Below are positions 1 through 45,689 of a stretch of DNA of 54,389 nucleotides, in pieces. The position numbers were made by a program, and so were the translations under genes. The stretch covers positions 62,001 through 116,389 of the forward strand of contig CAUYUJ010000246.1 of the NCBI GenBank assembly GCA_963575745.1. The letters are read 5' to 3'. This DNA comes from Prorocentrum cordatum (taxonomy: Eukaryota). Numbering within the stretch: the stretch's first letter is position 1; each line of letters begins with the position of its first letter. A model generated the notes under the pieces. It ran no database searches. It was not told the DNA's origin and worked only from the letters and a program-made list of their open reading frames with translations.

Positions 1-321
1 TTGACTATGAGTCGGGATGTTGGTAGGTGCTCGGTGTTCTCAGCTCCAGTCGAGCTGGAAGCTCTACGAGTCTCCCGGCGGTAACCAAGGTTGACGGTTT
101 ACCGCCGGCGTCCAGTAATTCCGGCGAGCTGGAGAGCTAGTTGGCAAGAAAACTTTTGGTGACTTTTGGTCGGTTCGAAATTTTGTTCTCGAAATTCAAC
201 CATTCGTTAGAGCTCTAGTATTTTTTCCCATGATATTCGATCTTATTCCCGCTCGCCATCTTGATCTCAGCTCGATCGGGTAACTTTGAAGGCCAAAAAG
301 CAGGCAGGCGGGAACGCCGTT

Positions 322-1040
322 TCGAGTCATCTTGATACGCGATGTCGGTTTTCTGATTAACTCGAGCTTCAGGACAGCTACAGAGCTGGTAAGCACAGCT
401 AATCGCATTCAGAATGATGAGGCGCGTTCGCCTGTTGAATCCAGAGGTCTGAACTCGGTCTGCTAGCCGAGCTAGGGTCGCAAACCTATTCGTATTATTC
501 GAGTCATTGTAGCAGACGCTCTCGGTTTTTCGTACTTAACTCGATCTGTAGGGCAGCCACAGAGCTGATAATCACAGAAATCGATTGAGAATTATCAGGC
601 GCGTTCGTCTGTTCAATCAAGAGCTCTGAACTCGGCCTGCTCCACGAGCTAGGTTCGCCAACCTATTGGTATTGTTCGAGTCATCTTGAGAAGTGCTCTC
701 GGTTTTCTGTACTTAAATCGTGCTGGGGGAGGGCTACAGTGCTGCTGGTCACCGGAATCGATTTCGAGACATCAGGCGCGTCCGTTCGTCGAACCGAGAG
801 CTCGGAACTCGGTCTGCTGCTCGAGCGAGATCCGCAAAACTGTTGTATTATTCGAGTCATCCTGAGAGGTACTCTCGGTTTTCTGCACTTAACTCAAGCT
901 GTATGGGGGGCTGCAGAGCTTGTAATCACAGGAATCGGTCCGCAGACATCAGACGCGTCCGCCTGTCGCATTCAGAGGTCTGAACTCGGTTTCATACTCG
1001 AGCTCGATTGGAAAACTGTTCGTTTGTTTCGTTAGAGTCA
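322..1040 (+). repeat. Degenerate ~177-bp tandem subrepeat inside family A elements (example array)
   Basis: Anchor TCGAGTCAT recurs at ~322, 498, 676, 852 and 1033. The same spacing is seen at ~24096, 24272 and 24449. Confidence 0.85.
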
Positions 1041-1041
1041 T

Positions 1042-2066
1042 AACTCGTAGAGCTTCCCTTGGCAAGTTATTGCTGGAAGCTAAGAGTAATTCCGGCGAGC
1101 TGGAGAGCTAGTTGGCAAGAAAACTTTTGGTGACTTTTGGTCGGTTAAAAATTTTGTTCTGGAAATGTGACAATTCGTTAGAGCTCTAGTATTTTTTCCC
1201 GTGGTATTCGATCTTATTCCCGCTCGCTATCTTGATCTCAGCTCGATCGGGTGAATATTACTATCGAAAAGCACTGTGGCGGGATCGGCCGTTTCGAGTC
1301 ATCTTGATACACGGTGACGGTTTTCTCAAGATAACTCGAGCTTCAGGGCAGCTACAGAGCTGGTCAGCACAGCTAATAGATCCAGAATGATTAGGCGCGT
1401 TCGCCTGTTGAACCCAGAGGTCTGAACTCGGTCTGCTAGCCGAGCTAGGTCCGCAAACCTATTCGTATTATGCGAGTCATCTTGACAGGCGCTCTCGGTT
1501 TTCTGTACTTAACTCGACCTGTAGGACAGCTACAGAGCTGATATCCACAGGAACTGATTCAGAATCATCAGTTGCGTTTGTCTGTCGAATCCAGAGCTCT
1601 GAACTCGGTTTGCTGCCCGATCTAGAATCACAAAATTATTCGTATTGGTCGAGTCATCTTGAGAAGTGCTATCGGTTTTCTTCACTCAACTCGCGCTGAG
1701 GGGGGCTACAGTGCTTGTTGTCACAGGAATCGATTTGAAGAGATCAGGCGTATCTGCCTGTCGAATCCAAAGCTCGGAACTGGGTCTGCTGTCCAAACTA
1801 GGTCCGCATAATTATTGTATTGTTCGAGTCATTCTGAGAGGTGCTGTCGGTTTTCCGCACTTAACTCGGGCTGTAGGACTGGCAATGACAGGGGTCGATT
1901 CGCAGACATCAGACGCGCCCGCCTTCGCATTCACAAGTCAAAAAATATTCACTATAAGTCGGAATGTTGGTAGGTGCTGTCGGTTCTCTCAACTGAAGTC
2001 GAGCTAGGAAGCTCTACGAGTCCCCCGGCGGTAACCAAGGTTGATGGTTTACCGCCGGCGCCCAGT
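1042..2066 (+). mobile_element. Family A element, complete copy
   Basis: Left end AACTCGTAGAGCTTCC at 1042. Internal ~177-bp repeats. Right subTIR, hairpin and CCCAGT end at 2066. Confidence 0.8.
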
Positions 2067-3149: not shown

Positions 3150-3855
3150 ACCTCGTAGAGCTCTTCGGCATCGATGAGCTAGAGGAATTCCGGCGCGGGT
3201 TGGAGCTAGTTGGCCCGCCCGGCCGAGGCGGACAATGTGGTATTGAAAGATATTTTACCATTTATTTTGTGAAAGCAGATTTTTCGCACCTGTAGTGGGT
3301 TAAGGCGCGCCTGCCAGTAAATTTTCAGGTCCGTAGCTGTAGTATTACTATCAAAACACTTGGCGGAATCAACGTTGGATAAAAACAGAAAAACGTGATT
3401 TTTCTAGTTTCTCAGATCTTGCTCTAGACCCTTTCTTCATGCTTACCGATGAGCGCCGTGTGAGAAAAGAGCTCTACGAGGGCCCCGGCGGTAACCTGGT
3501 TGGCGATTTTACGGTTTTGCAGGCCTATTTTAGCGATAAGTTGTGTGATTGATGATTCTCATTTGTGTTGTTGCCTTCATGCGTGCACACATTTGTGTTG
3601 ATGTACACACTCCTTATAAGAGCTGCCAGAGGCTACCGCCTAAGCCGCCCCCCCACGCGCTTGGCGTGGTGAGGCTTTCGCCTTAGCCTCTCTGCCAGAG
3701 GCTACCGCCTAAGCCGCGCGCTTGGCGTGGTGAGGCGCCTGCCCTCGGTGGCCCGCGTTTGGCGTGCCCGCCCGCTTCGGACTGGACTGGGCCTTGGGGC
3801 CCGTGTGTCCGCGAAACGAAAAAACCTGGTTGACGGTTTGCCGCCGGTTCCCAGT
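3150..3855 (+). mobile_element. Family B element interrupted in its 3' hairpin loop by a SINE-like insert
   Basis: ACCTCGTAGAGCTCTT at 3150. The hairpin left arm (3485-3494) is separated from GGTTGACGG..CCGCCGG..CCCAGT (3828-3855). Confidence 0.8.
3503..3822 (+). mobile_element. SINE-like or 5'-truncated retroposon insertion
   Basis: Flanked by direct repeat AACCTGGTTG (3493-3502 and 3823-3832). A-rich 3' end. Internal duplication of CTGCCAGAGGCTACCGCCTAAGCCGC. Confidence 0.7.
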
Positions 3856-4474
3856 TCCGGAGCGCTGGAGAGCTAGTTGGCTCGAAAAAAAGAACTGAAC
3901 TTTTCAGAACTTTTGGTCGGTGACTCGTAGAGCTTCCCTAAGCTAGTTGCTGGAAGCTTAAGAGTCATTCCGGCGCGCTGGAGAGCTAGTCGGCAAGAAA
4001 AATCTCGACGGAACTTTTGGTGACTTTTGGTCGGTTGAAAATTTCGTTCTCGAAATTTGACCATTCGTTAGAGCTCTAGTATTTTTTCCGTGATATTCGA
4101 TCTTATTCCCGCTCGCCATCTTGATCTCAGCTCGATCAGGTAACTTTGAAGGCCAAAAAGCACTCTGGCGGGATCGGCCGTTTCGAGTCATCTTGACATC
4201 CTCCACGGCGGTCCACAGGCCTCGCAGCAGTTCGTTTGAACCGGCGAAGTGTCCGGGGAAGCTTCCGGCAAGCTTCCAAGCGTGCCTGCATGCGCGCAGG
4301 CAACCATGGAAGCCCTTCTGGCAGCGCTTCAGCAGCGCTGCAGGGGAGCCCCCCAGAGCTCTCGAGAAAAGATTCCCTGTCCCCGAGAAACTTCGCTCTT
4401 CAGGTTTTGGACGCTACCAGTGAATAGTACCTCGTACCTCGTAGAGCTCTTCGGCAACGATAAGCTAGAGGAAT

Positions 4475-6609
4475 AACTCGTAGAGCTTCGCTTAGCAAGT
4501 TATTGCTGGAAGCTTAAGAGTAATGACTCGTAGAGCTTCCCTACGCTAGTTGCTGGAAGCTTAAGAGTAATTCCGGCGCGCTGGAGAGCTAGTTGGCTCG
4601 AAAAAAAAGAACTGAACTTTTCACAACTTTTGGTCGGTTGAAAATTTTGTTCTCGAAATTCAACAATTCGTTTGTGCTCTAGTATTTTTTCCCGTGATAT
4701 TAGATCTTATTCCCGCTCGTCATCTTGATCTCAGCTCGATCAGGTACCTTTTACTGCCAAAAAGCACACTGGCGGGATCGGCCGTTTCGAGTCATCTTGA
4801 TACGCGTTGTCGGTATTTTGTACTTAACTCGAGCTGTAGGACAGTCACAGAGCTGGTAAGCTCAGCTAATCGATGTAGAATGATTAGGTGCGTTCGCCTG
4901 TTGAATCCAGAGCTCTGAACTCGGTTTGCTCGCCGAGCTAGGTCCGCAAACCTATTCGTATTATTCAAGTCATCTTGATTCGCACTGTCGCTATTCTGAA
5001 CTTAACTCGAGATATAGGACAGCTACAGAGCTGGTAAGCACGCCTCATAGACTCAGAATCATCAGGCGCGTTCGGCTGTTCGAACCAGAGGTCTGAACTC
5101 GGTCTGCTAGCCGAGCCAGGTCCGCAAACCTATTCGTATTATTCGAATCATCTTGATAGGCGCTCTCGGTTTCCTGTACTTAACTCGAGCTATAGGACAG
5201 CTACAGGGCTGATAGTTACAGAAACCGATTCAGAATCATCAGTCGCGTTTGTCTGTCGAATCCAGAGCTCTGAACTCGGTCTGCTGCGCGATCCAGAATC
5301 ACGAAACTGTTCGTATTCTTCCAGTCATCTTGAGAGCTACTGTCGGCGTTCTGCACTTAACTCGGGCTGTAGGGAGGCTGGAGGGCGGGTAATCACAGGA
5401 ATCGATTCGGAGACATCAGACGCGTCCGTCTGTCGCATTCAGAGGTCTGAACTCGGTCTGATACTCGAGTTGGGCTGAAACACTATTCGTTCTCTGCAAT
5501 TTCTTTCGACATTATATGTTCTCAGGAAGCTCTACGAGTCCCCCGGCGGTAACAAAGGTTGACGGTTTACCGCCGGCGCCCAGTTCCGGAGCGCTGGAGA
5601 GCTAGTTGGCAAGAAAAATCTCGACGGACCTTTTGGTGACGTTTGGTCGGTTGAAAATTTTGTTCTCGAAATTCAACAATTCGTTTGAGCTCTAGTATTT
5701 TTTCCCGTGATATTCAATCTTATTCCCGCTCGCCATCTTGATCTCAGCTCGATCGGGTACCTTTTACTGCCAGAAAGCGTCCCGGCGGGATCGGCCGTTT
5801 CGAGTCATCTTGATACGTCTTGTCGGTATTTTGTACTTAACTCGAGCAGTAGGGCAGCTACAGAGCTGGTCAGCACGCCTATCGCACTCAGAATTATCAG
5901 GCGCGTTCGCCTGTTGAATCCAGAGGTCTGAACTCGGTCTGCTAGCCGAGCTAGGTCCGCAAACCTATTCGTATTATTCGAGTCATCTTGACAGACGCTC
6001 TCGGTTTTCTGTACTTAACTCGAGCTGTAGGGCAGCTACAGGGCTCATTGTCACAGACATCGATGGGGAATCATCAGTCGCGTTCGTCCAATGAACCAAG
6101 AGCTCTGAACTCGGCCTGCTGCCCGAGCTAGATTCGCGAAACCATTCGTATTGTCCGAATCATCTTGAGAAGTGCTCTCAATTCTCTACACTCAACTCGT
6201 GCTGGGGGAGGGCCACAGTGCTGCGGGTCACAGATATCGATTTGCACACCACAGGCGCGTCTGTCGGTCGATTCCAGAGCTCGGAACTCGGTCTGCTGCT
6301 CGATACTGTCGGTTTTCTGCACTTAACTCGGAGTGTAGGGGGGCTGCAGGGCTGGGAATCAGATGAGTGGATTCGCAGACATCAGACGCGCCCGCCTGTC
6401 GCATTCAGAGGTCTGAACTCGGTTTCAAACTCGAACTGGGTTGCAAAACTGTTTGTTTTTTTTTGTTAGAGTCATCTTGAGAGGTCTGAAATCGCTTGGG
6501 CTGAAAACGTAGTCGTTCTTTGGAGTTTTTTCTACACTATATACTGTCAGGAAGCTCTACGAGTCCCCCGGCGGTAAGAAAGGTTGACGGTTTACCGCCG
6601 GCGCCCAGT
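4475..6609 (+). mobile_element. Family A element containing a nested family A copy
   Basis: AAGAGTAAT (4524) resumes as TCCGGAGCGCTGG (5585). Ends CCCAGT at 6609. Confidence 0.8.
4525..5584 (+). mobile_element. Family A element, innermost intact copy
   Basis: GACTCGTAGAGCTTCC left end. Right end is GGAAGCTCTACGAGT, hairpin, CCCAGT. Confidence 0.85.
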
Positions 6610-7271
6610 TCGGGCGCGGGGTGCAGCTAGTTGGCCGACCCGGCCCCGACAGACAATGTGCGAACTTTGGGTCGGTTGGACGAACATTGTGAGAGATTTC
6701 AACATTCGTTTCGAGAATTGGGATTTTTCGCACCTGTAGTGGGTTATTCTGCGTCTGCCAGTGAATTCTTAGGTCTGTAGGTCCAGTAACTCGTAGAGCT
6801 TCCCTTAGCAAGTTATTGCTGGAAGCTTAAGAGTAATTCCGGAGCGCTGGAGAGCTAGTTGGCAAGAAAAATCTCGACGGACCTTTTGATGACTTTTGGT
6901 CGGTTGAAAATTTTGTTCTCGAAATTCAACAAATCGTTTGAGCTCTAGTAGTTTTTCCCGTTATATCCGATCTTATTCCCGCTCGCCATCTTGATCTCAG
7001 CTCGATCGGGTACCTTTTACTGTCAAAAAGCGTCCCGGCGGGATCGGCCGTTTCGAGTCATCTTGATACGCGTTGTCGGTATTTTGTATTCAACTCGAGC
7101 TGTAGGGCAGCTACCGAGCTGGTAAGCACACCTATCGCATTGAGAATTATCAGGCGCGTTCGCCTGTTGAATCTAGAGGTCTGAACTCGGTCTGCTAGCC
7201 GAGCTAGGTCCACAAACCTATTCGTATTATTCGAGTGATCTTGACAGACGTAATCCGAGATGTAGGGCAGT

Positions 7272-8372
7272 AACTCGTAGAGCTTCCCTTAGCAAGTTAT
7301 TGCTGGAAGCTTAAGAGTAATTCCGGAGCGCTGGAGAGCTAGTCGGCAAGAAAAATCTCGACGGACTTTTTGCTGACTTTTGGTCGGTTGAAAATTTGGT
7401 TCTCAAAATTTGACAATTCGTTTGAGCTCTAGTATTTTTTCCCGTCATATTCGATCTTATTCCCGCTCGCCATCTTGATCTCAGCTCGATCGGGTACCTT
7501 TTACTGCCAAAAAGCGTCCCGGCGGGAACGGCCGTTTCGAGTCATCTTGTCACGCGTTGTCGGTATTTTGTGCTTAACTCGAGCTGTAGGGCAGCCACAG
7601 AGCTGGTAAGCACACCTATCGCATTCAGAATTATCAGGCGCGTTCGCCTGTCAAATCCAGAGGTCTGAACTCGGTCTGCTAGCCGAGCTAGGCAAACCTA
7701 TTCGTATTATTCGAGTCATCTTGACAGACGCTCTCGGTTTTCTGTACTTAACTCGAGCTGTAGGGCAGCTACAGGGCGCATTGTCACAGACATCGATGGG
7801 GAATCATCAGTCGCGTTTGTCCATTGAACCGAGGGCTCTGAACTCGGCCTGCTGTCCGAGCTAGGTCCGCGAACCTATTCGTATTGTGCGTATTATCTTG
7901 AGAAGTGCTCTCAATTTTCTGCACTCAACTCGTGCTGGGGGAGGGCTACAGTGCTGCGGGTCACATATATCGATTTGCACACATCAGGCGCGTCTGTCGG
8001 TCGATTCCATAGCTTCGAACTCGGTCTGCTGCTCGAACTAGGTTCGCGAAACTATTCTAGTATTCGAGTCGATACTGTAGGTTTTCTGCACAGAAACTCG
8101 GGCTGTAGGGGGGCTGCAGGGCTGGAATCATATGAGTGTTTGCAGACATCAGACGCGCCCGCCTGTCGCATTCAGAGGTCTGAACTCGGTTTGATACTCG
8201 AAATGGGTTGCGAAACTGTTTGTTTTTTTGTTAGAGTCATCTTGAGAGGTCTGAAATCGCTTGGGCTGAAAAACTAGTCGTTCTTTGAGTTTTTTCCACG
8301 CTATATACTGTCAGGAAGCTCTACGAGTCCCCCGGCGGTAAGAAAGGTTGACGGTTACCGCCGGCGCCCAGT
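7272..8372 (+). mobile_element. Family A element, complete copy
   Basis: Both termini present. Preceded by a right-truncated A copy (6788-7271). Confidence 0.8.
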
Positions 8373-11300
8373 ATTACTATCAAAACACTCGGCGAAACCA
8401 TCTTTGGATGACAACATAAATCGTGATTTTTCGAATGTTTTGGGTCTTCCTCCAGACTCTCCCTGCACATGTACCGAGAAGCGCCGTGCGAGAAAAGAGC
8501 TCTACAAGGGCCCCGGCGGTGACCTGGTTGACGGTTTACCGCCGGTTCCCATAGAGCTCTTCGAAGCTGAGCTAAGAGGAATGCGGGCGCAGGGTGGAGC
8601 TAGTTGGCCGACCGCGCATTAAGAGACAATGTGGTAACTTTGGGTCGAGTTTCTAATGTTTGTGCAGAATTTGAAAATTCGTTTTGAGAACGCGTATTTT
8701 TCTCACGTGTAGTAGGTTACGCCGCGACTGCCAGTTAAATTCTCAGGTCCGTAACTGCAATATTACTATCACAACACTTGCTGGAACCGACTGCCGTTTT
8801 GAGTCATCTTGACGCGCATTAACGGTTTCTGTACTATCTCGGGATATAGGACAGCTACAGAGCTGATGCTTACAGAAACCAATTCGGAATCATGAGGCGC
8901 GTCCATCTGTTCGATCGACAGCTCTGAACTCGGTCTACTGCTCGAGCTGGGTGCGCAAACTTATTTGTATTCTTCGAGTCATTTTGACGAGTGTTGTCCG
9001 TTTTCTCTCGCGATATCTTGAACAAAAATCTCAATGTGTAGTGCGCAGCGCCGCGCAAGAAAGCTCTACGAGGCTCCCGGTGGTAACCTGGTTGACGGTT
9101 TACCGCCGGCTCCCAGTTTCGCGGACCTAGTTCGGGCAGCAGACAGAGTTCAGAGCTCTGTATTCGACAGGCGGACGCCTGATGTCTTTCAATCGATTCC
9201 ACCAAAAGTCAGCAAAAGTTCCGTCGAGATTTTTCTTGCCAACTAGCTCTCCAGCGCGCAGGGGTTGCTTTTAGCTTCCCTTAGCAAGTTATGGCCGGAA
9301 GCTAAGAGTAATTCCGGCGCGCTGGAGAGCTAGTTGGCAAGACAAATATCGACGGAACTGTTGCTGACTTTTGCTCGGTTGAAAATTTTGTTCTCAAAAT
9401 TTGACAATTCGTTAGAGCTCTAGTATTTTTTCCCGTGATATTCGATCTTATTCCCGCTCGCCATCTTGAGCTCAGCTCGATCGGGTGAATATTATTATCG
9501 AAACGCACTCTGGCGGGATCGACCGTTTTGAGTCATCTTGATATGCGCTGACGGTTTTCTGAACATAACTCGAGCTTTGGGACAGCTACAGAGCTGGTAA
9601 GCACAGCTAATCGATGCAGAATGATCAGGCGCGTTCGCCTGTTGAACCCAGAGGTCTGAACTCGGTCTGCTAGCTGAGCTAGGTCCGCAAACCTGTTTGT
9701 ATTATTCGAGTCATCTTGACAGAAACTCTCGGTTTTCTGCACTTAACTCGAGCTGTAGGACCGCTACAGAGCTGATATTTACAGGCACCAATTCAGAATC
9801 ATCAGTTGCGTTTGTCTGTCGAATCCAGAGCTCTGAACTCGGTCTGCTGCCCGATCTAGAATCGCGAAACTATTCGTATCGTTCGAGTCGCTTGCGAGAT
9901 GCTGTCGGTTATCTGACTTAACTCGGGCTGTAGGGGGGCTGCATGGCTGGTAATCACTCGGTTGAAAATTTTGTTCTCGAAATACCTCGTGGAGCTCTTC
10001 GGCATCGATGAGCTAGAGGAATTCCGGCGCGGGGTGGAGCTAGTAACTCGTAGAGCTTTCCGTAGCAAGTTATTGCTGGAAGCTTAGAGTAATTCCGGGG
10101 CGCTGGAGAGCTAGTTACGCCGAGCATTGGCATATAAACTCCTCTCTGACAGCAGCCCAGCTCTGCCGATGCATTTTCTTATGAGTTGATCTCCAGGACC
10201 TGAACGAATATGAACATCGAAAAATTCGAAAGTGAAGATTTTCGAAAAATCTCTATTTTATGATTCTACTCCGATTCTGAGCACTTTCGCCAGTGTCAGG
10301 AGCTCTACGAGGTTCCCGGCGGTGACCAGGTTGACGGTTCACCGCCGGCGCCAGTTGGCAAGAAAAATCTCGACGGACCTTTTGGTGACTTTTGGTCGGT
10401 TGAAAATTTTGTTCTCAAAATTTGAACATTCGTTAGAGCTCTAGTATTCTTTCCGATCATATTCGATCTTATTCCCGCTCGCCATCTTAATCTCAGCTCG
10501 ATCGGGTACCTTTTACTGCCAAAAAGCAGGCAGGCGGGATCGGCCGTTTCGAGTCATCTTGATACGCGCTTTCGGTTTTCTGAACATAACTCGAGCTTCA
10601 GGACAGCTATAACGCCAGTAAGCACAGCTAATCGATGTAGAATGATCAGACGCGTTCGCCTGTTGAATCTAGAGGCCTGAACTCGGTCTGCTAGCCGAGT
10701 TAGGTTCAACAACCTATTCGTATTATCCGAGTCATCTTGACAGGCGCTCTCGGTATTTAGTGCTTAACTCGAGCTGACAGGGCAGCTACAGAGCTCATAG
10801 TCACAGAAATCGATTGGGAATCATCAGGCGCGTTCGTCTGTTGAATCGAGAGCTCTGAAATCGCTCTGCTGCCCGAGCTAGAATCGCGAAACTATTCGTA
10901 TTGTTCGAATCATCTGACGAGGTACTGTCGCTTTCTAAACTTAACTCGGGCTGTAGGGGGCTACAGTGCTAGTGGGGACAGCAATCGATTTGGAGACATA
11001 AGGCGCGTCCGCCTGTGGAAGCCAGAGCTCGGAACTCGGCCTGCTGCCTGAACTCGGTCCGCGAACCTGTTCGTATTGTTCGAGTCATCCTGAAAGATGC
11101 CGGTTTTCTGCACTTAACACGGGCTGTAGGGGAGCTGCAGGGCTGGTAATCACAGGAATCGATTCGGAGACATCAGACGCGTCCGCCTGTCGCATTCAGA
11201 GGCCTGAACTCGGTCTGATACTCGAGCTGGGTTTAGGAAACTATTTGTTTTGTTTGAGTTATCTTCAGAGGTGCTGTTAATTTGCGCACGTAACTCGGGC

Positions 11301-12973
11301 TGTAGCAGAGCTACAGAGCTCGTACAGAAGACAATCCAGAAGCATCAGGGGGCGTTCGGCTGTTGCATCGAGAGGTCTGAAATCGCTTGGGCTAAAAAAC
11401 TATTCGTTCTCTGCAATTTATTTTCTATATTCTATATAGTCAGGAAGCTCTACGAGTACCCCGGCGGTAAGAAAGATTGACGGTTTACCGCCGCGGACAA
11501 TGTGATAACTTTTGGGTGGTTTTGCGAAAATTTGAACGATTTTTGACCATTTATTTTGAGAAAGCAAATTTTTACGCCGAGCATTGGCATATAAACTTCT
11601 CTCTAACAGTAGCTCAGCTCTCTCGATGCATTTTTGCATGAGTTGACTTCCAGGAACTGAGCGAATATGAACATCGAAAAAATCGAATTTGAAGATTTTC
11701 GAAAAATCTCAATTTTTTGATTCTGTGTCGATTCTTTAACAGTGAGAGGAGCTCTACGAGGTTCCCGGCGGTGACCAGGTTGACGGTTCACTGCCGGCGC
11801 CAGTAATTCCGGGGCGCTGGAGAGCTAGTTGGCAAGAAAAATCTCGACGGACCTTTTGGTGACTTTTGGTCGGTTGAAAATTTTGTTCTCAAAATTTGAG
11901 CATTCGTTAGAGCTCTAGTATTTTTTCCCATGATATTCGATCTTTTTACCGCTCGCCATCTTGGTCTCAGCTCGATCGGGTACCTTTTACTGCCAAAAAG
12001 CAGGCAGGCGGGATCGGCCGCTTCGAGTCATCTTGATACGCGCTGTCGGTTTTCTGAACATAACTCGAGCTTCAGGACAGCTACAGGGCCAGTAAGCACA
12101 GCTAATCGATGTAGAATGATCAGGCGCGTTTGCCTGTTGAACCCAGAGGCCTGAACTCGGTCTGCTAGCCGAGCTAGGTACAAAAAGCTATTCGTATTAT
12201 CCGAGTCATCTTGACAATCGTTCTCGGTATTTTGTGCTTAACTCGAGCTGCAAAGCAGCTACAGAGCTCATAGTCACAGAAATCGATTGGTAATTATCAG
12301 GCGCGTTCGTCTGTTGAATCGAGAGCTCTGACCTCGCCCTGTTGCCCGAGCTAGAATCACGAAACTATTCGTATTGTTCGAATCATCTGAAGAGGTACTG
12401 TCGCTTTCTAAACTTAACTCAGGCTCTAGGCAGCTACAGTGCTGGTGGGGAAAGCAATCGATTTAGAGACATCAGGCTCGTCCGCCTGTGGAAGCTAGAG
12501 CTCGGAACTCGGCCTGCTGCCTGAACTCCGTCCCCGAATCTGTTCGTATTGTTCGAGTCATCCTGAAAGATGCTGTCGGTTTTCTTCACTTAACTCGGGC
12601 TGTAGGGGAGCTGCAGGGCTGGTAATCACAGGAATCGATTCAGAGACATCAGACGCGTCCGTCTGTCGCATTCAGAGGCCTGAACTCGGTCTGACACTCG
12701 AGCTGGGTTTAGGAAACTATTCGTTTTGTTTGAGTTATCTTCAGAGGTGCTGTTGATTAGCGCACGTAACTCGGGCTGTAGTAGAGCTAGAGAGCTCGTA
12801 CAGAAGACAATCCAGAAGCATCAGGGGGGCGTTCGGCTGTTGCATCGAGAGGTCTGAAATCGCTTGGCCTGAAAAACTATTCGTTCTCTGCAATTTATTT
12901 TCTACATTATATATAGTCAGGAAGCTCTACGAGTCCCCCGGTATGCGATGTTTCTGATACGAGGCGTATTTCT

Positions 12974-28262: not shown

Positions 28263-28303
28263 GCCTTACGGCCAGTGCCGCCGACCCTGAAGGGCGACGA
28301 CGA

Positions 28304-28342
<39 letters not shown>

Positions 28343-36900: not shown

Positions 36901-37979
36901 GACTTGAGTCTGCGGTACATGGCCTGGAGATCGGCCAACGCCGCCGGCTTGACAGGCGGGGAGCTGACTGCTGGCGGCACAAGATAGGGATCGGCGGGAC
37001 CAGACAAGCACGACCCAATGTCTGCAGGGGATGTGTTGGGAATGCCGATATCCGCGAGAGAGGCGAACTGGGATTGTTGGAGCTGGTCAGAGAAGGGCCG
37101 ACGAGCCGTAGAGGTAGGGCGCGGTTGGGAGCGAGGTCGATATCGAGGAGCGCGAACCTGGGGTCGAATCTCGAACTTGAGGAAGGCATGATCAGAGTAG
37201 TGGCTGTGGACTCCGTCACGCACTCATTTCACTATGGTCTCTCCTCCCCCCCAGGCCGTCGGAGTGCAAACGTAATCTAGCACTTTGCTAGGGCTGGCGG
37301 CTCCCCACTTCCAGTAGGTCGGAGTCCGTTCTGCAAAAGTATTGATGGCACAAAGTCCCTCCTCCCCCATGAAGTGTTCAAAGTGCTCCCTCGTCATCTC
37401 CTCCCTCCATCGTCTGCTCTCTGAATCATTCCCATATCCTCTCTGCCGTGTCATCATGAGTCCCTCCCCCGTGATCTGCTCCCCCCGTGTCGACGCAAGG
37501 TCAGGCGTGAGCTCCGCGTTGGCGTCGCACACAAGAAGCAAGCAAGCGCCTGGGAGCCTCTGCACCGCCTCGCGGCGTATCTGCCGTAGCTGTCGGCACA
37601 TTGTCTCCATATCCGTCGGAGCGTCATCATACGAGCTGTCTTTGAAATAAGCACTGCAGAAGCAAACACCGTTACCGAAAAGCACACCTGCGATCCGATC
37701 TAAGTTAACCCAAGTATGACTTATGTTGCATTGGTACGATGCCCGTACCAGAACCCCTGCTCGGAGACAGCTGGATGGATAACCCAGCCAACCAAGCCGT
37801 CTGATCCCATCGGAGAAAATTAAATGCTGGCACTCCTGGAGGCCAATGACCGCAACTCCTTCATGGAGGAGCTGTCAGCATAGGGCAAATCCTCTAGCAT
37901 CACGGCGACCAGCCCTGGCAACATTCATGGAACCTGCCGCGAAAGGCTTGTTGCCTCTGTCCGCGCTCTCGCGGCCCCC
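33990..37979 (-). pseudogene. LINE ORF2 (APE endonuclease, RT, permuted RNase H) with in-frame stops and frameshifts
   Basis: APE motifs SMNV, GLQE, SAY, CDANA, LDY, SDH. RT motifs GPDG, LMPK, YGFSPGRS, ADIKKAFDNI, RTGGTESPLLFN, WADN. RNase H motifs GDSLLV, REDNTRADEL, YDGG..GCGFW, DCEVAA. Stops at ~37876, 37224 and 35478. Confidence 0.9.
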
Positions 37980-39330
37980 TCACTCCAAGCTGGATTGGAA
38001 AGCGGCGACTCTGGTCTGGATACCGTAACGAGGCAAGACCGCGTCCCAGACATCCTTGTGGATGGTCCAGCGTGCTTCTGATGCCTTCCAAACTGCAAGC
38101 TCGATGGGTCGATGGGTCTGGAGGTCGGGCGGCTTGGTCCAGATAGTGCTGATGCCTTTGCCTGATCCAGTCTGACTGCTGATGCCAAACTTTGTGTTCG
38201 GATATTATTTGAGAATTGTTTGCCTCCACATGCCATGGAAACGTCCCACGGCGGCAATAGAACCCTTCTTCCATTCTGGGGCCTCGATCTTGATGATGAC
38301 TTTCTTTGGACGACGATCCATATCTGTGAGGATCTTTTGCATGGTGCGATCTCCTGCGAGCTTCTTTTGGGCATCTGTGCGTTCACTAGGATCCAAAAAA
38401 AAACGCACCCCACAAATGTTTACAGTTCCATAATACATCCCCATCGGTACCAGCGCACAACTTGATACGGCAGAATGAAAACATGGGCTGTTTACCGTTG
38501 ATACGAAGGGTACCAACATCATCCACTTTGGCTCTATCTTCCTTCTCGAGGAGGTCCAGTAAGTTTCGAATATGATGCTGGCAATCGAGGTCCGTGATCT
38601 GTGTCTCTGAGCGCGACATCGCACTGGACGTATCCGTGACCAAGCCGCGGAGTTCGATATATGATGGATTCCACTGGCGCTGTACTCCAGCTCCTCCAAC
38701 CGATGACGTGCCTCCCGCACTCGGGGCCGCCGTGGAGGCCGACGTACCTGCTTTGATGAAGGCGATCTCTTTCTCAAGGCGGTCGAGTTTGGTATCCTGC
38801 TTGTCGTTGTGAGCCCTGAGCGAACCAATATCATCCTTGACCTCTGTGATTTCCTGCTTGAGCTCAATCATATTCTCGGACTGGAGGGAGGCCAGGGCGC
38901 TCAGGGCATCTCCGAGCTTGCCGAAATCGTCGGGTGCATCATCCGCTTTGCACGCCTCGCTGAACGAGGCCATAGATTTCTCACAGGCCTCGCGTTTTGC
39001 CTCCAATGCCGTCGCCTGTGCCCGTCGTTTGACCCTGCGGTCGTCGCCCATGACTACATCCGACACAGCCGTCGTCATATCTGATGCCGCTCTGTGGAGC
39101 TGACTGAGATGTACTCCCCAGCGTTGACACCAGTCTTGGTCGTCCTGAGGGGACCTTTTGCGGGATGCTGCCTGGGCCGCTGGGTCCTCAGCCTCCGTAT
39201 CTTTGAGGTGTTTGTCAAGATCAATAGACTCAGTGGGATCGATAGAAGCGTCGATGAGATGAGTCTTCTCGTCTGGCCTCTGTCTGGTACAGTGACGTGT
39301 CAAAACCTGATTAAAGCGGTACGGCGTGAT
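37980..39330 (-). pseudogene. LINE ORF1 (coiled coil plus probable RRM-like domain), disrupted
   Basis: Heptad segment LKQEITEVKDDIGSLRAHNDKQDTKLDRLEKEI followed by WNPSYIELRG. Frameshift near 38400, stop at 38205, terminal TGA at 37980-37982. Start position uncertain. Confidence 0.7.
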
Positions 39331-39509
39331 GCATCCCTCGACCAATCGCAATCGCACGAGAGCAGGAGTCGAACTCACACGAGAGCAGGAGTCGGACGCA
39401 GGCGAGAAAAATATACTTGTGGTGTAAGAGGTGAAAAGGGGAGGTAGAGGTGACTGCAAGCGGGAAGGTGGCGTATCGTGACCTCCTCCCCTTCTGGAGC
39501 GACGTTGCT

Positions 39510-39536
39510 CTTGAGCCGACGTTGCTCTTGAGCCAA
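39510..39536 (-). other. Dinoflagellate spliced-leader relics at the LINE 5' end
   Basis: Minus strand reads TTGGCTCAAG (39527-39536) and GGCTCAAG (39510-39517), matching the 3' end of DinoSL DCCGTAGCCATTTTGGCTCAAG. Confidence 0.6.
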
Positions 39537-42500
39537 GTTGCTCTTGGTTACCGCTGGGAACTCGTAGCGCTTCCTCGTGCAATGCGGGCGCGGCAATCTT
39601 GCGCTGCGCGCGCGAGGGCGTGATCTGCTGGAGGAGAACGTGGGGGAGAAGAAGGGGCGAGGGAAACATGTCAATTGAAAACAATACTAGACAGACCAGA
39701 CCGAGTTCAGACGTCTGGACACTTTGAGTCAGCGCACCTGTTGATTTCGGTCTGACTGCTGTGCCAAACAGCGTAAAGAAAACCATGGCCGTCTAAAAAA
39801 AATGGAGAATACGAATAGTTGTTTTCGGTCCGAGCGTTGATGGCAGGCCGAGTTTAGGCGTCTCGATGATATAAACTGGCACGCCTGATTATATCCTTCC
39901 GATTGCCGTGCCAAATAGCTCTGTATTTCATCTGCAGCTCGGATTAAGTCAAGAACACCTATATCATCTCCAAAAGACAAACAGAGTACGAATAGTTGTG
40001 CAGTCGCAGCGCTGATAGCAGACCGAGTTCAGGCTAGATACTTCAGACTATCGTGTATGACGAGTTCCTTCCCATTGCTGTGCCAAACAGCTCTGTAGTT
40101 CATCTGCAGCTCGACTTAAGTCAAAAAAACTATCACCATCTCGAATACGAGTACGAATAGCGTCGCAGCCCCAGCGCTGATAGCAGACCGAGATCAGGCG
40201 TCTAGATACTTTGAACTAGCGCGCCCGATAGTGTCCTTCCGATTGTTGTGCTGAACAGCTCTGTAGCTTATCTGCAGGTCGAGCTAAGTCAAGAAAACCA
40301 CCACCATTCCCAAGGAATGAGCAGAGTACGAATGGTTTTTGAGCTCCAGCGCTGATAACAGACTGTTGTCAGCCGTCTAGATACTTTAAACTCGCTCGCA
40401 TGATTATTGTCTTCCGATCGTCGTGCCAAACAGCTCTGGAGCTCGTATACAGCTCGATTTAAGTCAAGAAAATCATCACCATCTGCAAAGAAAATAGAAT
40501 ACGAATAGTGTTTTGGCTCCAGCGCTAATAACAGGCCGATTTCAGGCGTCTAGATACGTCAGACTATCGCGTCAGCTGGTTACTTCTGAGTGCTGTGCCA
40601 AAGAGCTCTGTGTCTGATCTGCACCCGATTAATGCCAAAGAGCTCCATGTCTGATCTGCACCTCGAGTGAAGTCAAGAAACTCGTCATAATCTCGAACAA
40701 AAAAATAGACTACGAATAAGAGCTTCGAGAACCTAGCTCGGGTAATAGACGGTTCAGATATCAGGACACTCCAGACGAACGCGCATGACGATTCTAGATC
40801 GATTAGGTGTGCACAACAGCTCTGCAGCTATCCTACAGCTCGAGTTAATTTGGGAAAACCGACAGCACCTGTCACAATGACCCAAACAGCCGATCCGGCC
40901 AGAGTGCTTTCTGACAGTGACAGGTACCCGATGGACCTGAAATTAAGTCGGCGAGCGGCAATGAGACCGAATATGAGGACCTGCTGTTCAAGAACCCGAA
41001 TAGCCAAATAAGAGAACACTGGCGCCCGCGATGAACCGTCAACCTGGTCACCGCCGGAACCTCGTAGAGCTCCTTGCACGCGTAAGAGTGCTCAGAATCG
41101 AAGCAGAGAACTAAAAGGAATATTTGCTTAAAGTCTTCATTTCTCATGTTTTGATGCAGCGTCCAAAACCGGGAGAGCAACTGGCGCCGGCGGCAGACCG
41201 TCAACCTGGTTACCGCCAGGGACCTCGTAGAGCTCCTTGCACGCTCGACAGTGCTGGGCAAAGGAGCAGATAGCTTCTCGAAGCATTTCTCGAAAGGTGA
41301 AACATTGATTTTTTCATGTCGACATGAAGTTGGTTCCTCCAGCTGTTTTGATGGTAAAAGTGCGCCTACAGAGCTCATAGTAAGACACAGAGACCCTCAT
41401 AGTCTTCTACAAGTGCGGAAAAAATTGGTATTTAAAAATGATTTTTTAAATATCGTTCAAATCTTAGGAGCAACCACCCCAAAGTCACCACATCTTCTTG
41501 TCTGGTCGGGTCGACCAACTAGCTCCACCCCGCGCCCGAACTGGGCGCCGGCGGTAAACCGTCAACCCTGGTTGCCGCCGGGAGGCTCGTAGAGCTTCCT
41601 TGCCATATACCATCTCCAAAGAATTAGCAGAGAACGAATAGTGTTTCAGCCCGGGCGCTGATAGCAGACTGATTTCAGGCGTCTAGATACATTTAACTAG
41701 CGCCCCTGATGATTCCCTTCCTTCTGCTGTGCTGAACAGCTCTGTAGCTCATCTGCAGCACGAGTACAACCACGAAAACCAATACCATCTCCAAGAAATT
41801 AGCAGAGTACGAATAGTTGTTCAGCCCGAGCGCTGATAGCAGACTGAGTTCAGGCATCTAGATACTTCCAAATAGCGCGCCTCAATAATCCCTTCCGATT
41901 GCTGTGCCTAAGAGCTCTGGAGCTCATCTGCAGGTCGAGTTAAGTCAAGAAACCATTTCATCACCAGAAAAAAAAAACAGAGTATGACTAGTCGTTCGGC
42001 TGCTGCGCTCATAACAGACCCAATTCAAGCGTCTAGATACTCGTACTAGCGCGCCTGATGATTTTCTTCCGATTTCTGTGCCAAAGAGCTCTCAAGCTCA
42101 TCTGCAGCTCGAATTCAGCGAAGAAGTTCATCATCATCTCGAGAAAAATCGGTACAATATAAATTTTGTTTCGGACGCAGCTCGAGTAGCAGACCGAGTT
42201 CAGACCTCTAGATGCTTTAGACGAACGCGCCTGATATTCTCAATCGATTACGTGTGCGCACCAGCTCTGTATCTCCCCTACAGCTCGAGTTAAGTACAGA
42301 AAACCGACAGCACCTGTCAAGATGACTCCAAACAGCCGATCCCGCCTGGATGCTTTTTGGCAGTAATAGGTACCCGATCGAGCTGAGATTTAGACGGCGA
42401 GCGGGAATAAGATCGAATATCGCGGGGAAAAATATTAGAGCCCTAACGAATTTTTGAATTTCGAGAACATAACTGGCAGCCGGCGGTGAACCGTCAACCA

Positions 42501-42848
42501 GGTTACCGCCAGGAGCCTCGTAGAGCTCTCCTTCTCGCGCGGAGGTGCTCAGACCACATGGAGGGAGCTTTCTGAAGCGTAAGCTGGAAAACACAAACAA
42601 AACGCATTCTTCGGTATCCATCCGAAGGCAATTCCTTCAAGTGTTTCGATAGTAATACTGCAGTGCAGCTACAAGCCTGAGAATTTACTTGGCGGACGCG
42701 GCATAACCCACTACAGGTGCGAGAAATACCGGTTCTCGAAACGAATTTTCGAATCTCTCACAATCTGGAAAAACCGACGCCAGGTCATGGCATTGTCCGC
42801 CCGTGCCGGGTGCACCAAGTGGCGCCGGCGGTGAACCGTCAACCTGGT

Positions 42849-44599
42849 CTTTTGCGGTCTTTTGCGGACGGTCGATTCGAGCCTCCACGGAGGCAGACCG
42901 AAACACAAAGCAACTCAGAACAGAGCCTGAGAGCAAAACGCTGAGCGCACTAACAGCGAAGCTGTACAGCAATGCCCAAGAGCGTAAATCCCACTAAGAG
43001 TCAACTAAGAAAAGTAAGAATATCCAGAGCTGTACAAACAGCAAAGCAAGAAGCAGTGAGAGACCATACAGTAACCACTGGTTTATACAGCGATTACCGT
43101 CTCAACACCACTGAGAATAGAAGCAGTGAGAGACCATGCAGTAACCACTGGTTTATACAGCGATTACCGTCATTACCACTGAGACAAACACGAAACTAGC
43201 AACTAAAATGGCGAGTGCGCTTCAAAGCAATGCGAGACCATGCAGTAACCACATATAGCGATTACCGTCTCAGCACCACTGAAAGACCATGCACGTGAAA
43301 CACAACGTCGAATTTGCGGTCGACTGTGCGGGCCGTCTGGCCCAGTCGCTAGCTGGAAAACGGCGGCATACAGAGTCAGGCAAGACACCCGCCACTCTTT
43401 GAGCGGGAGTGGGCAAATGCAAAACTCTTATTCCGAACAAAGTGAAGATCACGCGGAGCTCTTATACCAACATGCGCGCATGCCCGACACACACACAGCA
43501 TGGCAAGAGCCAACGCAAACACAAAGTCCGAAGTATGTCATAACAACCCGCGGTAAGACAGGAGTCGTATGCTCACGTCGAATGTGTGATAACTGAATGT
43601 CTGATAACGTGCACGACTCTAACTCACGAAAGAAACGATTCCAACCTCCCCTCGAAGGTTCCCACGGCGTAGTGAATAAGAGTACTCAGACTGCAACCAA
43701 AGTCAAAATTGGATACGTGCTGAGAGCAACTCGTACAAGATAACAAATGCGGCAAGTACAAACGCAAGTGGCCTGGAAGTACACAGACTGATATGGAATG
43801 GGACGGAAGAGGACACTTGTGGAACACAGACTGATATTGATGCTGTTGAATTGGCTCTGGCTCAACTGCATACATACGTATCGTACTCAACTGTCCATCT
43901 TGTTATTGCCTGTGAATTGCCTTCTTCTTGTTGAGCGAATCCACGTATCATATATGGAGTTCGTTACATCTGAATTGTCAGGCATGGATTTTGTAGCTTC
44001 AGATTGGACTGCTACGGCGTTGTTTACTTCCGAGTTTCTCGCTGCTCGTTTGTCTACGCTCGAAGTGTGTGTTAGTGACATATTGCCGTGTTCGCCCTTC
44101 GTACGGAGGTGAGTCTCGCCTGCATGAGCGAGACCAGCTGTATGGGCATGGTGTCAAAGTTTCTCAATCGAAGATAGCTTTCAGTGGTGCTGAGACGGTA
44201 ATCGCTATATTTGGGTACTGCATGGTCTCGCATTGCTTTGGGGCGCACTCGCTATTTTAGTTCTCTTAGCTTCGTGTTTGTCTCAGTGGTGTTGAGACGG
44301 TAATCGCTGTATAAACCAGTGGTTACTGTATGGTCTCTCACTGCTTCTAGCTGTGCTTCCATATCTATGGTCTGCATTGCTTCCCTCATTATATTGTTAG
44401 TTGTTTTCTCGTGTGCTTGCAGTCTTGTGCATATTTGTACAGCGCAGTCTTGTGCATATCTGTGCAGCTTCGCTGTTTGATGCACCTCTGCTTTAATCTT
44501 TGCAGCTTCGCTGTTTTCCTGTACAGCTTCGCTGTTTAGGTTCCCTGTGTCCTGGCCTGCTCTCCAGGGAGCTCGAATCGGCCAACGCAGACTACGCAG
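42849..44599. mobile_element. Pair of related retroposon-like 3' ends facing outward (long imperfect inverted repeat)
   Basis: 43050-43115 is the reverse complement of 44281-44347, and 43180-43285 is the reverse complement of 44179-44286. Each outer end joins directly to CC(A/T)GGTTGACGG of a hairpin. Confidence 0.6.
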
Positions 44600-45689
44600 A
44601 CCTGGTTGACGGTTTACCGTCGGCTCCCAGTGCCTCGTAGAGCTCTTCGGCATCGATGAGCTACAGGACTTCCGGCGCAGGGTGCAGCTACTTGGCCCAT
44701 CCCGCCCGGGCAGGCAATGTGGCCACTCACTGATTCCGCCACGGCCGCAGGCGATCCCCCGAATCCACGACGCCGAGTCGCCCCGAGGCGACGCCGCGTC
44801 GAAGGCGCCGACGCCGCGCCCGGGAGGTGCCAGACGCCCCAGCAGCGCCGGACCCCACGCGCGAAGCCCCGTCGCAGAGCACTCCGCCGAGCGCGGCGAG
44901 ACACAGGCCACGCGCAGCGCGGCGCCGCCGACGCACTGCCCCGCCCCTTGCGACGCCCTCCAGGCAGCATCACCCACGCACTCGCTCGCGCTCTGCCCCG
45001 CCCTGCCCAGTGCGCCGCCGATCCCAATGCCGGGAGAGAACCTGCGCGCGCGCGCCGCCCCCCACATGGGTAGGTTGCATCGGGCGGAAATCCATCTTCG
45101 AGGGCCATTGACAGGTCAAGGGTGGCTCCCATACAGTAGTGTATGTCCTCTGTAAGTCTGTAAGCAGCCAAGACTTATCACAACTCGCAGTGTGGTGTCA
45201 CCTAGAGGGATTGGCGGACATGTCCATCAAACAAAAACTCATTATCCTCCTCCTCCTCCTCCTCCTCGTCCTCGTCCTCCTCCTGCCGTTCCTCCTGCGC
45301 AACTTATTATCCTCCTTTTTCTCAGTATCCTCCTCCTCCTCCTTCTCCTCCTCCTCCCCCTCTCCCCCGAAAAAGGAAATCCTTAGGAATCCTTCGGTGG
45401 GTTGTCGTGGCCCTTACCGTCGTCGCCGTCGCCCTCGTCGTTCGCCCCCGCGTCCCTGCCGTCGCCCGCGCCGGTGGCCCGAGACTCGCGGCGGGTCGCC
45501 GCGCGCGCCCTCCTGGGCCCCTGGGCCCTCGCCGTCTCCGAGGCGCGGCCCCCCCCCGAAGGGGAGGAGGGGAGGGCAGAGAGCCTCTCTGCCAGAGAGG
45601 AGGGGAGGAAGGATAGGGAAGGAGGGCGGAAAGAAAGGGAGGGCGAGGGAGAAGGGGAGGGGGAGGGAACGGAACGGGGAAAACGACAA

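Follow-up and report, generated by a model that had tools for sequence, protein, structure and literature searches.

The organization of a 54,389-nt window of Prorocentrum cordatum DNA (contig CAUYUJ010000246.1) allows us to describe its positions 1-44,706 as nested and tandem non-autonomous elements of the HLE2 (Helitron2/Helentron) type, belonging to families A, B and A2, with a few other insertions. Families A and B are probably non-autonomous HLE2 rolling-circle transposons similar to HINE and DINE-1, as the original prediction had proposed; all of the structural features of such elements that could be tested, as given in the available excerpts of the literature (PMC3627910, PMC4067079, PMC11417382, PMC5148889), were found. 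By the excerpts of the first three of these papers, HLE2 elements have an inverted repeat of 8-16 nt whose 5' copy lies within 0-4 nt of the 5' terminus, a 5' hairpin that uses part or all of this copy, and a subterminal 3' copy immediately before a 3' hairpin, at a distance of 20-60 nt to the end; they insert between T and T (or T and C/A) without a target-site duplication (TSD), and their autonomous partners encode a Rep-helicase, with an AP endonuclease in addition in Helentrons (PMC3627910, PMC4067079, PMC11417382). Central tandem repeats between the terminal modules are typical, not obligatory, for the HINE/DINE-1 type and are present in family A.

The left ends of families A and B read R-(A/C)-CTCGTAGAGCT and carry a 5' hairpin, and the right ends consist of the complementary repeat, a 10-bp GC hairpin and CCAGT, giving the layout T^R(A/C)CTCGTAGAGCT... 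on the left and ...CTCTACGAG(T/G)-hairpin-CCAGT on the right. The 15-mer ACTCGTAGAGCTTCC, allowing up to two mismatches, occurs 29 times in the window; by their flanks, ten occurrences are left ends on the plus strand and the others are right subterminal copies (17 on plus and two on minus). This 15-nt 5' repeat begins 1 nt inside the terminus in ten family A left ends and is placed likewise in family B and in the subfamilies found on metagenome contigs. The short inverted repeat AGCTTCC-N(1-30)-GGAAGCT is found nine times in the window and never in 100 shuffles. DNA folding gives a 5' hairpin that covers nt 2-44 and takes in the 5' repeat, with 97.8% of 89 cells paired in the outer stem. Base 2 and its hairpin partner form A:T in 12 rows and C:G in nine, with none unpaired among the 21 rows (of 23 in all) that have both letters; the switch from A:T to C:G falls between the families. 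At the other end, 32 complete right ends were aligned (27 from the window and five from metagenome contigs), and all show the repeat, the 10-bp GC stem (96.9% of 320 cells paired) and the terminal ...CCAGT, with 45 nt from repeat to terminus in family A and 44 nt in family B (32/32). The 3' repeat closes with T in A-type ends and with G in B-type ends, and one pair of the stem varies between A:T (22 rows) and G:C (six). Each covarying pair may reflect a single split between A and B.

The two families are represented by the following copies, the first of which was delimited from its sequence and flanks, tandem repeats, DNA folds and its match to the covariance model of left ends (LTS).

25426-26645, plus strand: family A reference full copy, 1,220 nt, the best LTS match (94.1 bits); 5' hairpin at 25427-25469, central 177-nt repeats at 25687-26529, 3' repeat at 26586-26600, stem arms at 26604-26613 and 26628-26637, tail CGCCCAGT at 26638-26645.
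16104-16456, plus strand: family B full copy, 353 nt, LTS match of 78.0 bits; 5' hairpin ACCTCGTAGAGCTC...GAGCTAGAGG, 3' end ...GAGCTCTACGAGG, hairpin, GCCAGT.

Both families are non-coding and related to each other. Family A is ∼1.0-1.2 kb long and, by tandem-repeat analysis, has ∼2 to 4.8 copies of its central 177-nt unit; family B (∼350-390 nt) has none. Searched with blastn, the A, B and A2 reference copies match 27,984 of the 44,730 nt flagged at the outset (62.6%) and 0 nt in 44,731-54,389, so the extent first given for the domain holds. Family-matching DNA amounts to 24,296 nt in the plus and 3,676 nt in the minus orientation. Counted at 40 bits or more, the covariance model of right ends (RTS) finds 36 in the window, 31 on plus and five on minus, all within 56-42,531, and LTS finds 20 left ends. 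Simple nesting within the window leaves this excess of right ends unexplained; to account for it, one would have to invoke left fragments located upstream of the window, 'one-ended' copies with 5' truncation, which an excerpt of PMC3627910 describes for Chlamydomonas Helitron2, or deletions. The copies are old: the median identity of family A copies across the 5' 260 nt is 0.88 (n = 8). Rfam and tRNA scans of the window gave no match. The nests in 1-27 kb were parsed outside parts of 1-4.4, 8.5-12 and 17-21 kb. The regions on which the description of insertion and of the domain edge rests are as follows.

4436-8553, plus strand: fully resolved nest; host B in pieces 4436-4474, 6610-6787 and 8373-8553, with an A copy (4475-4524 and 5585-6609), itself split by another (4525-5584), between the first two pieces, and a third A copy (6788-8372), in which 484 nt are duplicated internally, between the last two.
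23419-25033, plus strand: A copy 23480-24694 within a family B copy, at the site ...GAGCTAGT^TGG.
9984-16456, plus strand: 6.5-kb composite running from a B left end to a B right end, within an A copy.
39543-42849, minus strand: cluster of two 5'-truncated A2 copies and B right ends; the A2 copies have diverged 175-nt repeats, and RTS matches lie on minus at 41015, 41177, 41537 and 42469.
44600-44706, plus strand: domain edge; a right end, present as its 3' half, reaches 44631 and is followed by a B left-end fragment at 44632-44706 (LTS, 61.8 bits), with similarity lost after ∼90 nt; there are no right ends in the rest of the window.

Insertion is strand-specific, after a T and without target duplication. 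The base before the left end is T in 25 of 25 cases (31 listed flanks less six that belong to right ends read in reverse complement). Of these flanks, 12 end in AGT; the other 13 end in AAT, GGT, CAT, CTT, ATT, CGT, TAT or TTT, and a 3-bp AGT target duplication is therefore ruled out. Following CCAGT, the 32 right ends have T in 20 cases, A in six, C in four and G in two; as only 20 of 32 have T, the target is 'after T' and not strictly TT. In-silico excision restored an uninterrupted host copy with no base duplicated or lost in all five cases tried. For the nest at 4436-8553, it yields contiguous B and A sequences at ...GAGGAAT^TC(C/G)GG, ...AAGAGTAAT^TCCGG and ...CCAGT^ATTAC; removal of 23480-24694 gives a B copy 82.2% identical to the reference across a gap-free junction; and the composite 9984-16456 sits at ...CTCGAAAT^TTGACAATTCG, where the joined flanks align gap-free to two intact A copies. 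The ends and boundaries thus have the form originally predicted: a subTIR at the left end, an inverted repeat inside it, the partner subTIR ∼45 bp from the right end, a GC hairpin followed by CCAGT, and junctions that share a single T with no longer TSD, the shared T being a one-base ambiguity at the insertion boundary.

The same ends are found in other DNA contexts. A metagenome scan with the right-end pattern returned seven contigs, six of which carry the same ends; the matching contigs are 1.1-2.2 kb each. The seventh, L007, was rejected as a family member, being a chance match in coding-like DNA (18.5 bits). Two others, L001 and L004, have stacked left fragments at the same sites as in the window, in a different subfamily. 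In sequencing run X1, 32,088 of 6,054,007 contigs map to 4.4 kb of the domain, with the depth being summed word depth and not copy number. Empty-site forms are among them: for the nest at 4436-8553, a loose end lies behind 4474 in 34 contigs and a joint connects 6782 to 8370. The right-end pattern had no match in the collections genome_contigs and viral_contigs.

Copies are nested in the same orientation, and 17 of the 32 right ends adjoin one of three homologous sites, AAGAGT^AAT, AAT^TCCGG and GCTAGT^TGG. The random expectation is ∼0.3 (p = 0.0087 per junction) if each of the 344 T positions of an A copy is equally likely; the junction counts are not independent events, as one pair at least (21066-21365 and 24590-24889) is a 95% segmental duplicate and composites may have been mobilized whole. 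All three of these T-ending homing sites lie in the 5' region of the elements themselves. At the first, family B has AGAGG, and no insertion is found there in family B.

It is unlikely that the domain arose from few insertions and grew mainly by unequal crossing-over, segmental duplication and inversion, in a satellite-like manner, with its junctions being copies of one another. Such growth is suggested by a 95% segmental duplicate (D18), by the 484-nt tandem duplication, which spans a left end, by inversion junctions at hairpins (9201-9303 and 42850-44599) and by the surplus of right over left ends. However, the same three sites are hit in A and B hosts and in the metagenome-contig subfamily, flanking copies diverge by ∼12-20% and five junction pairs are base-exact. 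This explanation also addresses how the domain grew and not what the elements are.

For the enzyme, we take the Rep-helicase from the published HLE2 model. Neither a Rep-helicase nor another HUH protein or transposase with these ends was found in the window, where all 169 stop-to-stop open reading frames of at least 90 residues were compared with Pfam and only RVT_1 scored above the cut-off. By this model, a Rep-helicase supplied in trans would nick T^R(A/C)CTCG at the left end, unwind the plus strand and cut after CCAGT, guided by the 3' repeat and hairpin; the freed strand would then be joined into single-stranded target DNA after a T. The target sites can be read as resembling the element's own 3' terminus, and the enzyme may favour ...AGT^ and ...AAT^ sites just 3' of a hairpin or GC palindrome, which would fall in the first 70 nt of other copies. 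Given such a preference, a new copy would end up within an older one or immediately behind it, in the same direction, and this would build the 44.7-kb domain.

We consider it improbable that the ends merely look like those of HLE2 and are used by a different enzyme that leaves no TSD, for example an HUH protein that lacks a helicase (Replitron-like or IS200/IS605-like) or a tyrosine or serine recombinase whose substrate is a short shared core. The lack of a Rep-helicase partner in the window would fit this, as would the half of the left flanks that end in AGT, the last three bases of the element, a pattern that a core-sequence recombinase would give as well; the organism is also sparsely sampled, a word-based protein search giving one homologue each for the LINE reverse transcriptase (RT) described below and for P0001. 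Against it, 13 of 25 left flanks lack AGT, so that the common base is one T only, and asymmetric repeats with two hairpins are the published hallmark of Rep-helicase-partnered elements. The excerpt of PMC10288648 describes Replitrons, known from green algae, as HUH-type copy-and-paste elements, mostly without TSDs and with a right-end palindrome, which A and B resemble, but takes short direct repeats at the termini as their defining feature; no such repeat is shared by RACTCG... and ...CCCAGT, and the first and last 10 nt of A and B have no direct repeat in common, so they were rejected as Replitrons. Improbable, too, is a distinct lineage of HUH or other single-strand transposase, apart from the canonical Rep-helicases, that reads 'hairpin plus ...AGT' both as 3' end and as target; if true, this would account for the strictness with which the elements home to three sites in their own 5' region.

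A large gene at 46020-50494 adjoins the domain, and its family has invariant or near-invariant D, D, C..H, RW and E positions, a pattern that we take to resemble that of hAT-like transposases. That A and B are MITEs of a DDE transposon, for example of this gene, is hardly credible: the gene family keeps those positions and the B left-end fragment 44632-44706 lies 1.3 kb upstream on the same strand, but the five reconstructions have no TSD where one of fixed length is the criterion, the ends are asymmetric where symmetric TIRs are, the right repeat lying 44-45 nt internal, and no right end lies downstream of the gene within the window. The homologue of P0001 is 97% identical to it, the word-based search found none for P0002, and the P0001/P0002 family gave only marginal coiled-coil and PHD-finger matches among PDB sequences. 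P0008 has no relative in viral_contigs.

Three poly(A) retroelements, two of them related LINEs, share one position in the loop of the 3' hairpin; they are outside the A/B family.

3503-3824, plus strand: 322-nt poly(A)-ended insertion in the 3' hairpin loop of a family B element; its TSD comprises at least CCTGGTTG.
12942-15947, plus strand: non-LTR retrotransposon, 5'-truncated and with an A11 tail, that occupies the 3' hairpin loop of a family A element; RVT_1 from residue 14 of its open reading frame (Pfam).
33969-39542, minus strand: 5.6-kb non-LTR retrotransposon with RVT_1 and an A8 tail, flanked by the TSD CAAG and lying in the 3' hairpin loop of an A2 element.

The two LINEs are 36% identical over the RT and 29% over the C-terminal part. 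Their open reading frames had no match in PDB sequence searches and, with P0001-P0003, gave no endonuclease or RNase H against Pfam at E values up to 5. Several features led us to reject the two RT elements as autonomous partners of A and B: their tails are poly(A), their targets are duplicated or carry a small deletion, the right ends that they interrupt are complete, and A or B sequence is absent from both. The shared loop position suggests a second layer, a LINE lineage with the transposon hairpin as its landing site.

Comparison with known systems, by their descriptions in the available excerpts, places A and B among HLE2 elements. The non-autonomous Helitron2 elements of green algae (Helitron-1N1_CRe and CRe-1/2/3 of Chlamydomonas; Bao and Jurka, 2013, PMC3627910) share the 5' repeat at 0-2 nt from the end, folded into a hairpin, the 3' repeat that precedes a 3' hairpin, TSD-free insertion after T, and an over-abundance of 3' parts together with 5' truncation; their 3' repeat lies ∼20-30 nt from the end (44-45 nt here), their target is TTTT^ as described (AGT^ or AAT^ here), and the variable-length TSDs described there are absent from the truncated copies examined here. 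DINE-1/HINE, the non-autonomous Helentrons (Thomas et al., 2014, PMC4067079), likewise have subterminal repeats of 12-15 bp, which lie near the end on the 5' side and 38-60 bp from it on the 3' side, a short inverted repeat whose 5' half falls within the 5' repeat, tandem repeats in the centre, a 3' stem-loop, clustered copies and T-rich targets without TSDs, whereas those described are animal families whose partners have an extra endonuclease domain, and A and B have no T run at their termini. Cg_HINE of the Pacific oyster (PMC7492417) is similar in its two flanking modules with subterminal repeats and 3' palindrome, its satellite-like central repeats of ∼170 nt and the absence of a TSD by the empty-site method, but its copies are dispersed, and self-nesting at fixed sites is not described in the excerpt. 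FoHeli1/2 of Fusarium oxysporum (PMC5148889) are Helitron2-type elements with an extended target of their own (TNAT^T/A); the excerpt discusses the one-T boundary ambiguity, covers a study of self-insertions and reports that outward PCR detected joined ends. They are autonomous with a Rep-helicase and differ in termini and target motif. Canonical Helitron1 shares the lack of a TSD, the 3' hairpin and strand-specific insertion, but has 5'-TC and CTRR-3' ends and an A^T target (excerpts of PMC11417382 and PMC4067079). A and B have R(A/C)CTCG, CCAGT, terminal inverted repeats, a 5' hairpin and a T^N target, and were rejected as Helitron1 on their termini and on the T, not A, before every left end.

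The new lineage suggested by the original prediction is not borne out: the anatomy is that of textbook HLE2, and self-insertion, 3' over-abundance and satellite-like central repeats are all in print. On present evidence, A and B are a new family of a known kind of element; a literature search for 11-mers of the repeat, a weak check of the term 'undescribed', gave no transposon paper among the matches listed. The domain is a clean, base-resolved case of Helitron2-type elements building a one-directional repeat domain, which they do by homing to a small number of T-ending sites within their own 5' region and to positions immediately after 3' ends already present. The exact termini allow the autonomous partner to be fished from the genome and, if the target sites truly mimic the 3' terminus, the domain would offer a simple substrate set for studying how HLE2 elements choose their cleavage and integration sites.

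Two related non-coding repeat families, A and B, make up most of positions 1 to ~44,706 of the window, whose 54,389 nt are without any N. The copies used as references, a diverged form and two stretches of unlike DNA are as follows.

Repeat families and other repetitive DNA in the window
25426-26645, +, reference copy of family A (copy size ~1.0-1.2 kb)
16104-16456, +, full copy of family B (copy size ~350-390 nt; plan as in family A)
39.5-42.8 kb, reverse orientation, A2, a diverged A-like form
28204-29250, ~1 kb of GC-rich low-complexity DNA with CTCTTGGGGC-type repeats and GAC/GGC runs, breaking a copy of family B at a point outside the hairpin
51488-52862, ~30-copy array of a palindromic 43-nt unit (CATTTGGCAGCTCCTGCCAAATG core), outside the domain

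A family A copy starts with (A/G)ACTCGTAGAGCTTCC, a loop and GGAAGCT, so that its first 44 nt form a single hairpin. The interior has a conserved 5' block and then a 177-nt unit in ~2 to 4.8 copies; the 3' end reads GGAAGCTCTACGAGT, then CCCCCGGCGGTAA-loop-TTACCGCCGG, then CGCCCAGT. Family B has ACCTCGTAGAGCTC...GAGCTAGAGG on the left and ...GAGCTCTACGAGG-hairpin-(C)CCAGT on the right, and the end patterns for the families are T^R(A/C)CTCGTAGAGCT (left; ^ marks the element boundary or insertion point) and CTCTACGAG(T/G)-hairpin-CCAGT (right). The low-complexity insert at 28204-29250 shows neither a poly(A) tail nor recognisable ends.

The 15-mer repeat occurs 29 times in the window with at most two mismatches, and AGCTTCC-N(1-30)-GGAAGCT occurs nine times, versus zero in 100 shuffles. 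A right-end covariance model trained on 32 aligned ends gave 36 matches scoring 40 bits or more (31 on the + strand and five on the - strand, ranging from 56 to 42,531), 27 of which belonged to the training set and nine of which were new; the left-end model gave 20 matches at the same threshold. Using blastn with three reference copies, 27,984 of 44,730 nt were covered (24,296 nt in + and 3,676 nt in - orientation) and 0 nt in 44,731-54,389. The original prediction of a self-nesting, non-autonomous family occupying 1-44,730 holds in both its coordinates and its description.

The search for the left-end core listed 31 hits, six of which were reverse complements of right ends and were dropped. 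The base before the left end is T in all 25 that were kept (19 from the window and six from contigs), with AGT in 12 of them; the base after CCAGT (n = 32) is T in 20 cases, A in six, C in four and G in two. Five inserts were excised in silico and the joined flanks were aligned to intact copies.

In-silico excisions and the junctions they restore
4525-5584, insert A in host A, junction AAGAGTAAT^TCCGG
4475-6609, insert A in host B, junction GAGGAAT^TC(C/G)GG
6788-8372, insert A in host B, junction CCAGT^ATTAC
23480-24694, insert A in host B, junction GCTAGT^TGG
9984-16456, composite insert in host A, junction CTCGAAAT^TTGACAATTCG

All five excisions restore the host with zero bases duplicated or lost, the sole ambiguity being which of two Ts the element owns, and contigs of X1, a sequencing run that matches the domain, carry the uninterrupted form at two of the five sites. 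The single shared T of the original prediction, without a longer target-site duplication (TSD), corresponds to this one-base ambiguity. Head-to-tail junctions of the form CCAGT^R(A/C)CTCG are present in the genomic DNA at 3149/3150, 25425/25426 and 44631/44632.

The 3' stem is paired in 96.9% of 320 cells, and at one of its positions 22 ends have A:T and six have G:C. In the 5' hairpin, 97.8% of 89 cells are paired across the four outer positions of the stem. Left-end base 2 and its hairpin partner are A:T in 12 rows, C:G in nine and unpaired in none. A-type ends carry T, and B-type ends G, as the final 3'-repeat base, the one that would pair with base 2. For Helitron2, Bao and Jurka proposed, in the available text of PMC3627910, that the 5' repeat pairs with either its hairpin partner or the 3' repeat. 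The 5' repeat of families A and B would likewise alternate between the two, and the joint change of base 2, its partner and that final 3'-repeat base is as expected under such pairing, although the covarying changes may each have arisen once, at the A/B split.

Insertions are concentrated at a few sites: 17 of 32 right ends adjoin one of three homologous positions less than 70 nt from the start of another copy, namely AAGAGT^AAT (four times), AAT^TCCGG or AAT^TCGGG (seven times) and GCTAGT^TGG (six times). With insertion equally likely at each of the 344 Ts in an A copy (p = 0.0087 per junction), ~0.3 right ends would be expected there, the observed counts not being independent events because duplicates exist in the domain. 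The 5' hairpin has its last paired base at the first site (AAGAGT^); family B has AGAGG here and no insertions. The third (GCTAGT^) lies 9 nt past the GC palindrome CCGGCGCGCTGG, and the real terminus lies 8 nt past the 3' stem. We infer that the target sites mimic the 3' end of the element.

Scanning metagenome contigs for the exact pattern recovered seven of 1.1-2.2 kb. Six have strong right ends (80-90 bits); the seventh is a chance match as judged by its right-end model score. Two of the contigs, L001 and L004, represent a subfamily with a different 5' loop, and their left fragments are stacked (GACTCG...AAGAGT^GACTCG...AAGAGT^AATTCG...GGCTAGT^), indicating nesting at the sites used in the window. 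The right-end pattern had no match in the prokaryote genomes or viral contigs scanned. In run X1, 32,088 of 6,054,007 contigs were placed on 4.4 kb of the domain with at least 90% likeness, so the family is abundant in this data set. No transposon paper was among the matches listed for literature containing the repeat 11-mers, the available text of the literature pairing Pyramimonas with Helitron names the alga merely as a probable virus host, and the literature searched describes no such elements in prasinophyte green algae.

Simple nesting does not explain the excess of right over left ends (36 versus 20); 17382-21170 and similar runs are made of 5'-truncated copies, each immediately behind a right end. 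The array could have been reshaped by recombination, which has certainly acted on the domain, as seen in duplicates and inversion junctions. There is a 95% duplicate segment, and a 484-nt tandem duplication at 6776-7730 (93% identity) holds a complete family A left end, giving one element with two tandem left ends. The inversion junctions are located at hairpins; at 9201-9303 family A 5' regions are joined, - to +, at the palindromic 5' inverted repeat, apparently through an inversion that took place at the hairpin. It is also possible that 5'-truncated 'one-ended' copies were formed, as reported for Chlamydomonas Helitron2 (available text of PMC3627910). Left fragments stacked upstream of the window are a further possible source of the excess.

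Three poly(A)-ended insertions sit in the right-end hairpin loop, oriented as the host element.

Poly(A)-ended insertions in the hairpin loop
3503-3824, +, 322 nt
12942-15947, +
33969-39542, -

The poly(A) side of all three is within 1-2 nt of a common position before GGTTGACGG. By our own arithmetic, ~40 loops with three positions each in 44.7 kb amount to ~0.3% of the domain, making three of three there unlikely by chance. The pattern suggests a LINE lineage with the hairpin of families A and B as its target. The insertions at 12942-15947 and 33969-39542 are related non-LTR elements (LINEs) with 36% identity over the RT, and these two have only one database homologue (44%). The long ORF of the truncated LINE contains a 30-nt (10-codon) tandem repeat in ~15 copies (14198-14630). 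A 1.75-kb palindromic unit at 42850-44599, with internal inverted repeats of 91-97% identity, has an inverted copy of the hairpin 3' half at each edge, and at its boundaries the hairpin is broken at the loop position used by the retroelement insertions; a fourth insertion, duplicated in inverted form, is a possible origin of the unit.

Adjoining the domain, the ORFs at 46020-47717 (+) and 48440-50494 (+) correspond to the N- and C-terminal halves of a ~1,300-residue (aa) protein family with 387 homologues (E at most 0.001) among 50% cluster representatives. No Pfam domain was found in ten long members; D, D, C..H, RW and E positions are conserved, and there is a hint of a C-terminal PHD-like zinc finger. 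The conserved positions are reminiscent of a DDE transposase, and the family may be a putative, undescribed DDE-type transposase family. A EukProt protein labelled Pyramimonas sp. shares 97% identity with the ORF at 46020-47717, which makes a prasinophyte green alga the likely host. At 51167-51553 (-) a Cullin match falls below the Pfam threshold (17.9 bits against a cut-off of 33.2); the segment is a possible host-gene exon.

The window has 169 stop-to-stop ORFs of 90 aa or more; a Pfam scan of every one, in sets of 61, 48 and 60, gave only RVT_1 above the cut-off, in two ORFs. The two RVT_1 elements were rejected as partners: they have poly(A) tails, interrupt complete right ends and are without A or B sequence, and are thus retroelements that arrived as later guests.

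According to the available text of the sources, the 5' repeat of Helitron2 lies 0-2 nt inside the terminus and folds into a 5' hairpin, its 3' repeat precedes the 3' hairpin, and insertion is after T and leaves no TSD (PMC3627910). In HINE and DINE-1, the non-autonomous Helentrons, repeats of 12-15 bp are placed 2-4 nt inside the 5' end and 38-60 bp inside the 3' end. The 5' one has an inverted repeat nested in it, and these elements also carry central repeats and a 3' stem-loop and use TT as their target (PMC4067079). For HLE2 (Helitron2/Helentron) the repeats are 12-16 nt long, a stem-loop follows the right one, and the target is T-T (PMC11417382). Every one of these features is present here, the central repeats in family A, whereas the characteristic ends of Helitron1, the direct repeats of Replitron (available text of PMC10288648) and the features of MITEs are absent. 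Family-specific extended targets, self-insertions and joined ends have already been described for Fusarium Helitron2, as have satellite-like central repeats for oyster HINEs (PMC5148889 and PMC7492417, respectively, in their available text). With all HLE2/HINE features present and those of the rival classes absent, the families belong to an already known kind; the HLE2-like class of the original prediction stands on structure, but its suggestion of a new lineage finds no support. The structure of the ends supports families A and B as HLE2-type non-autonomous elements, which would be moved by a putative HUH enzyme.
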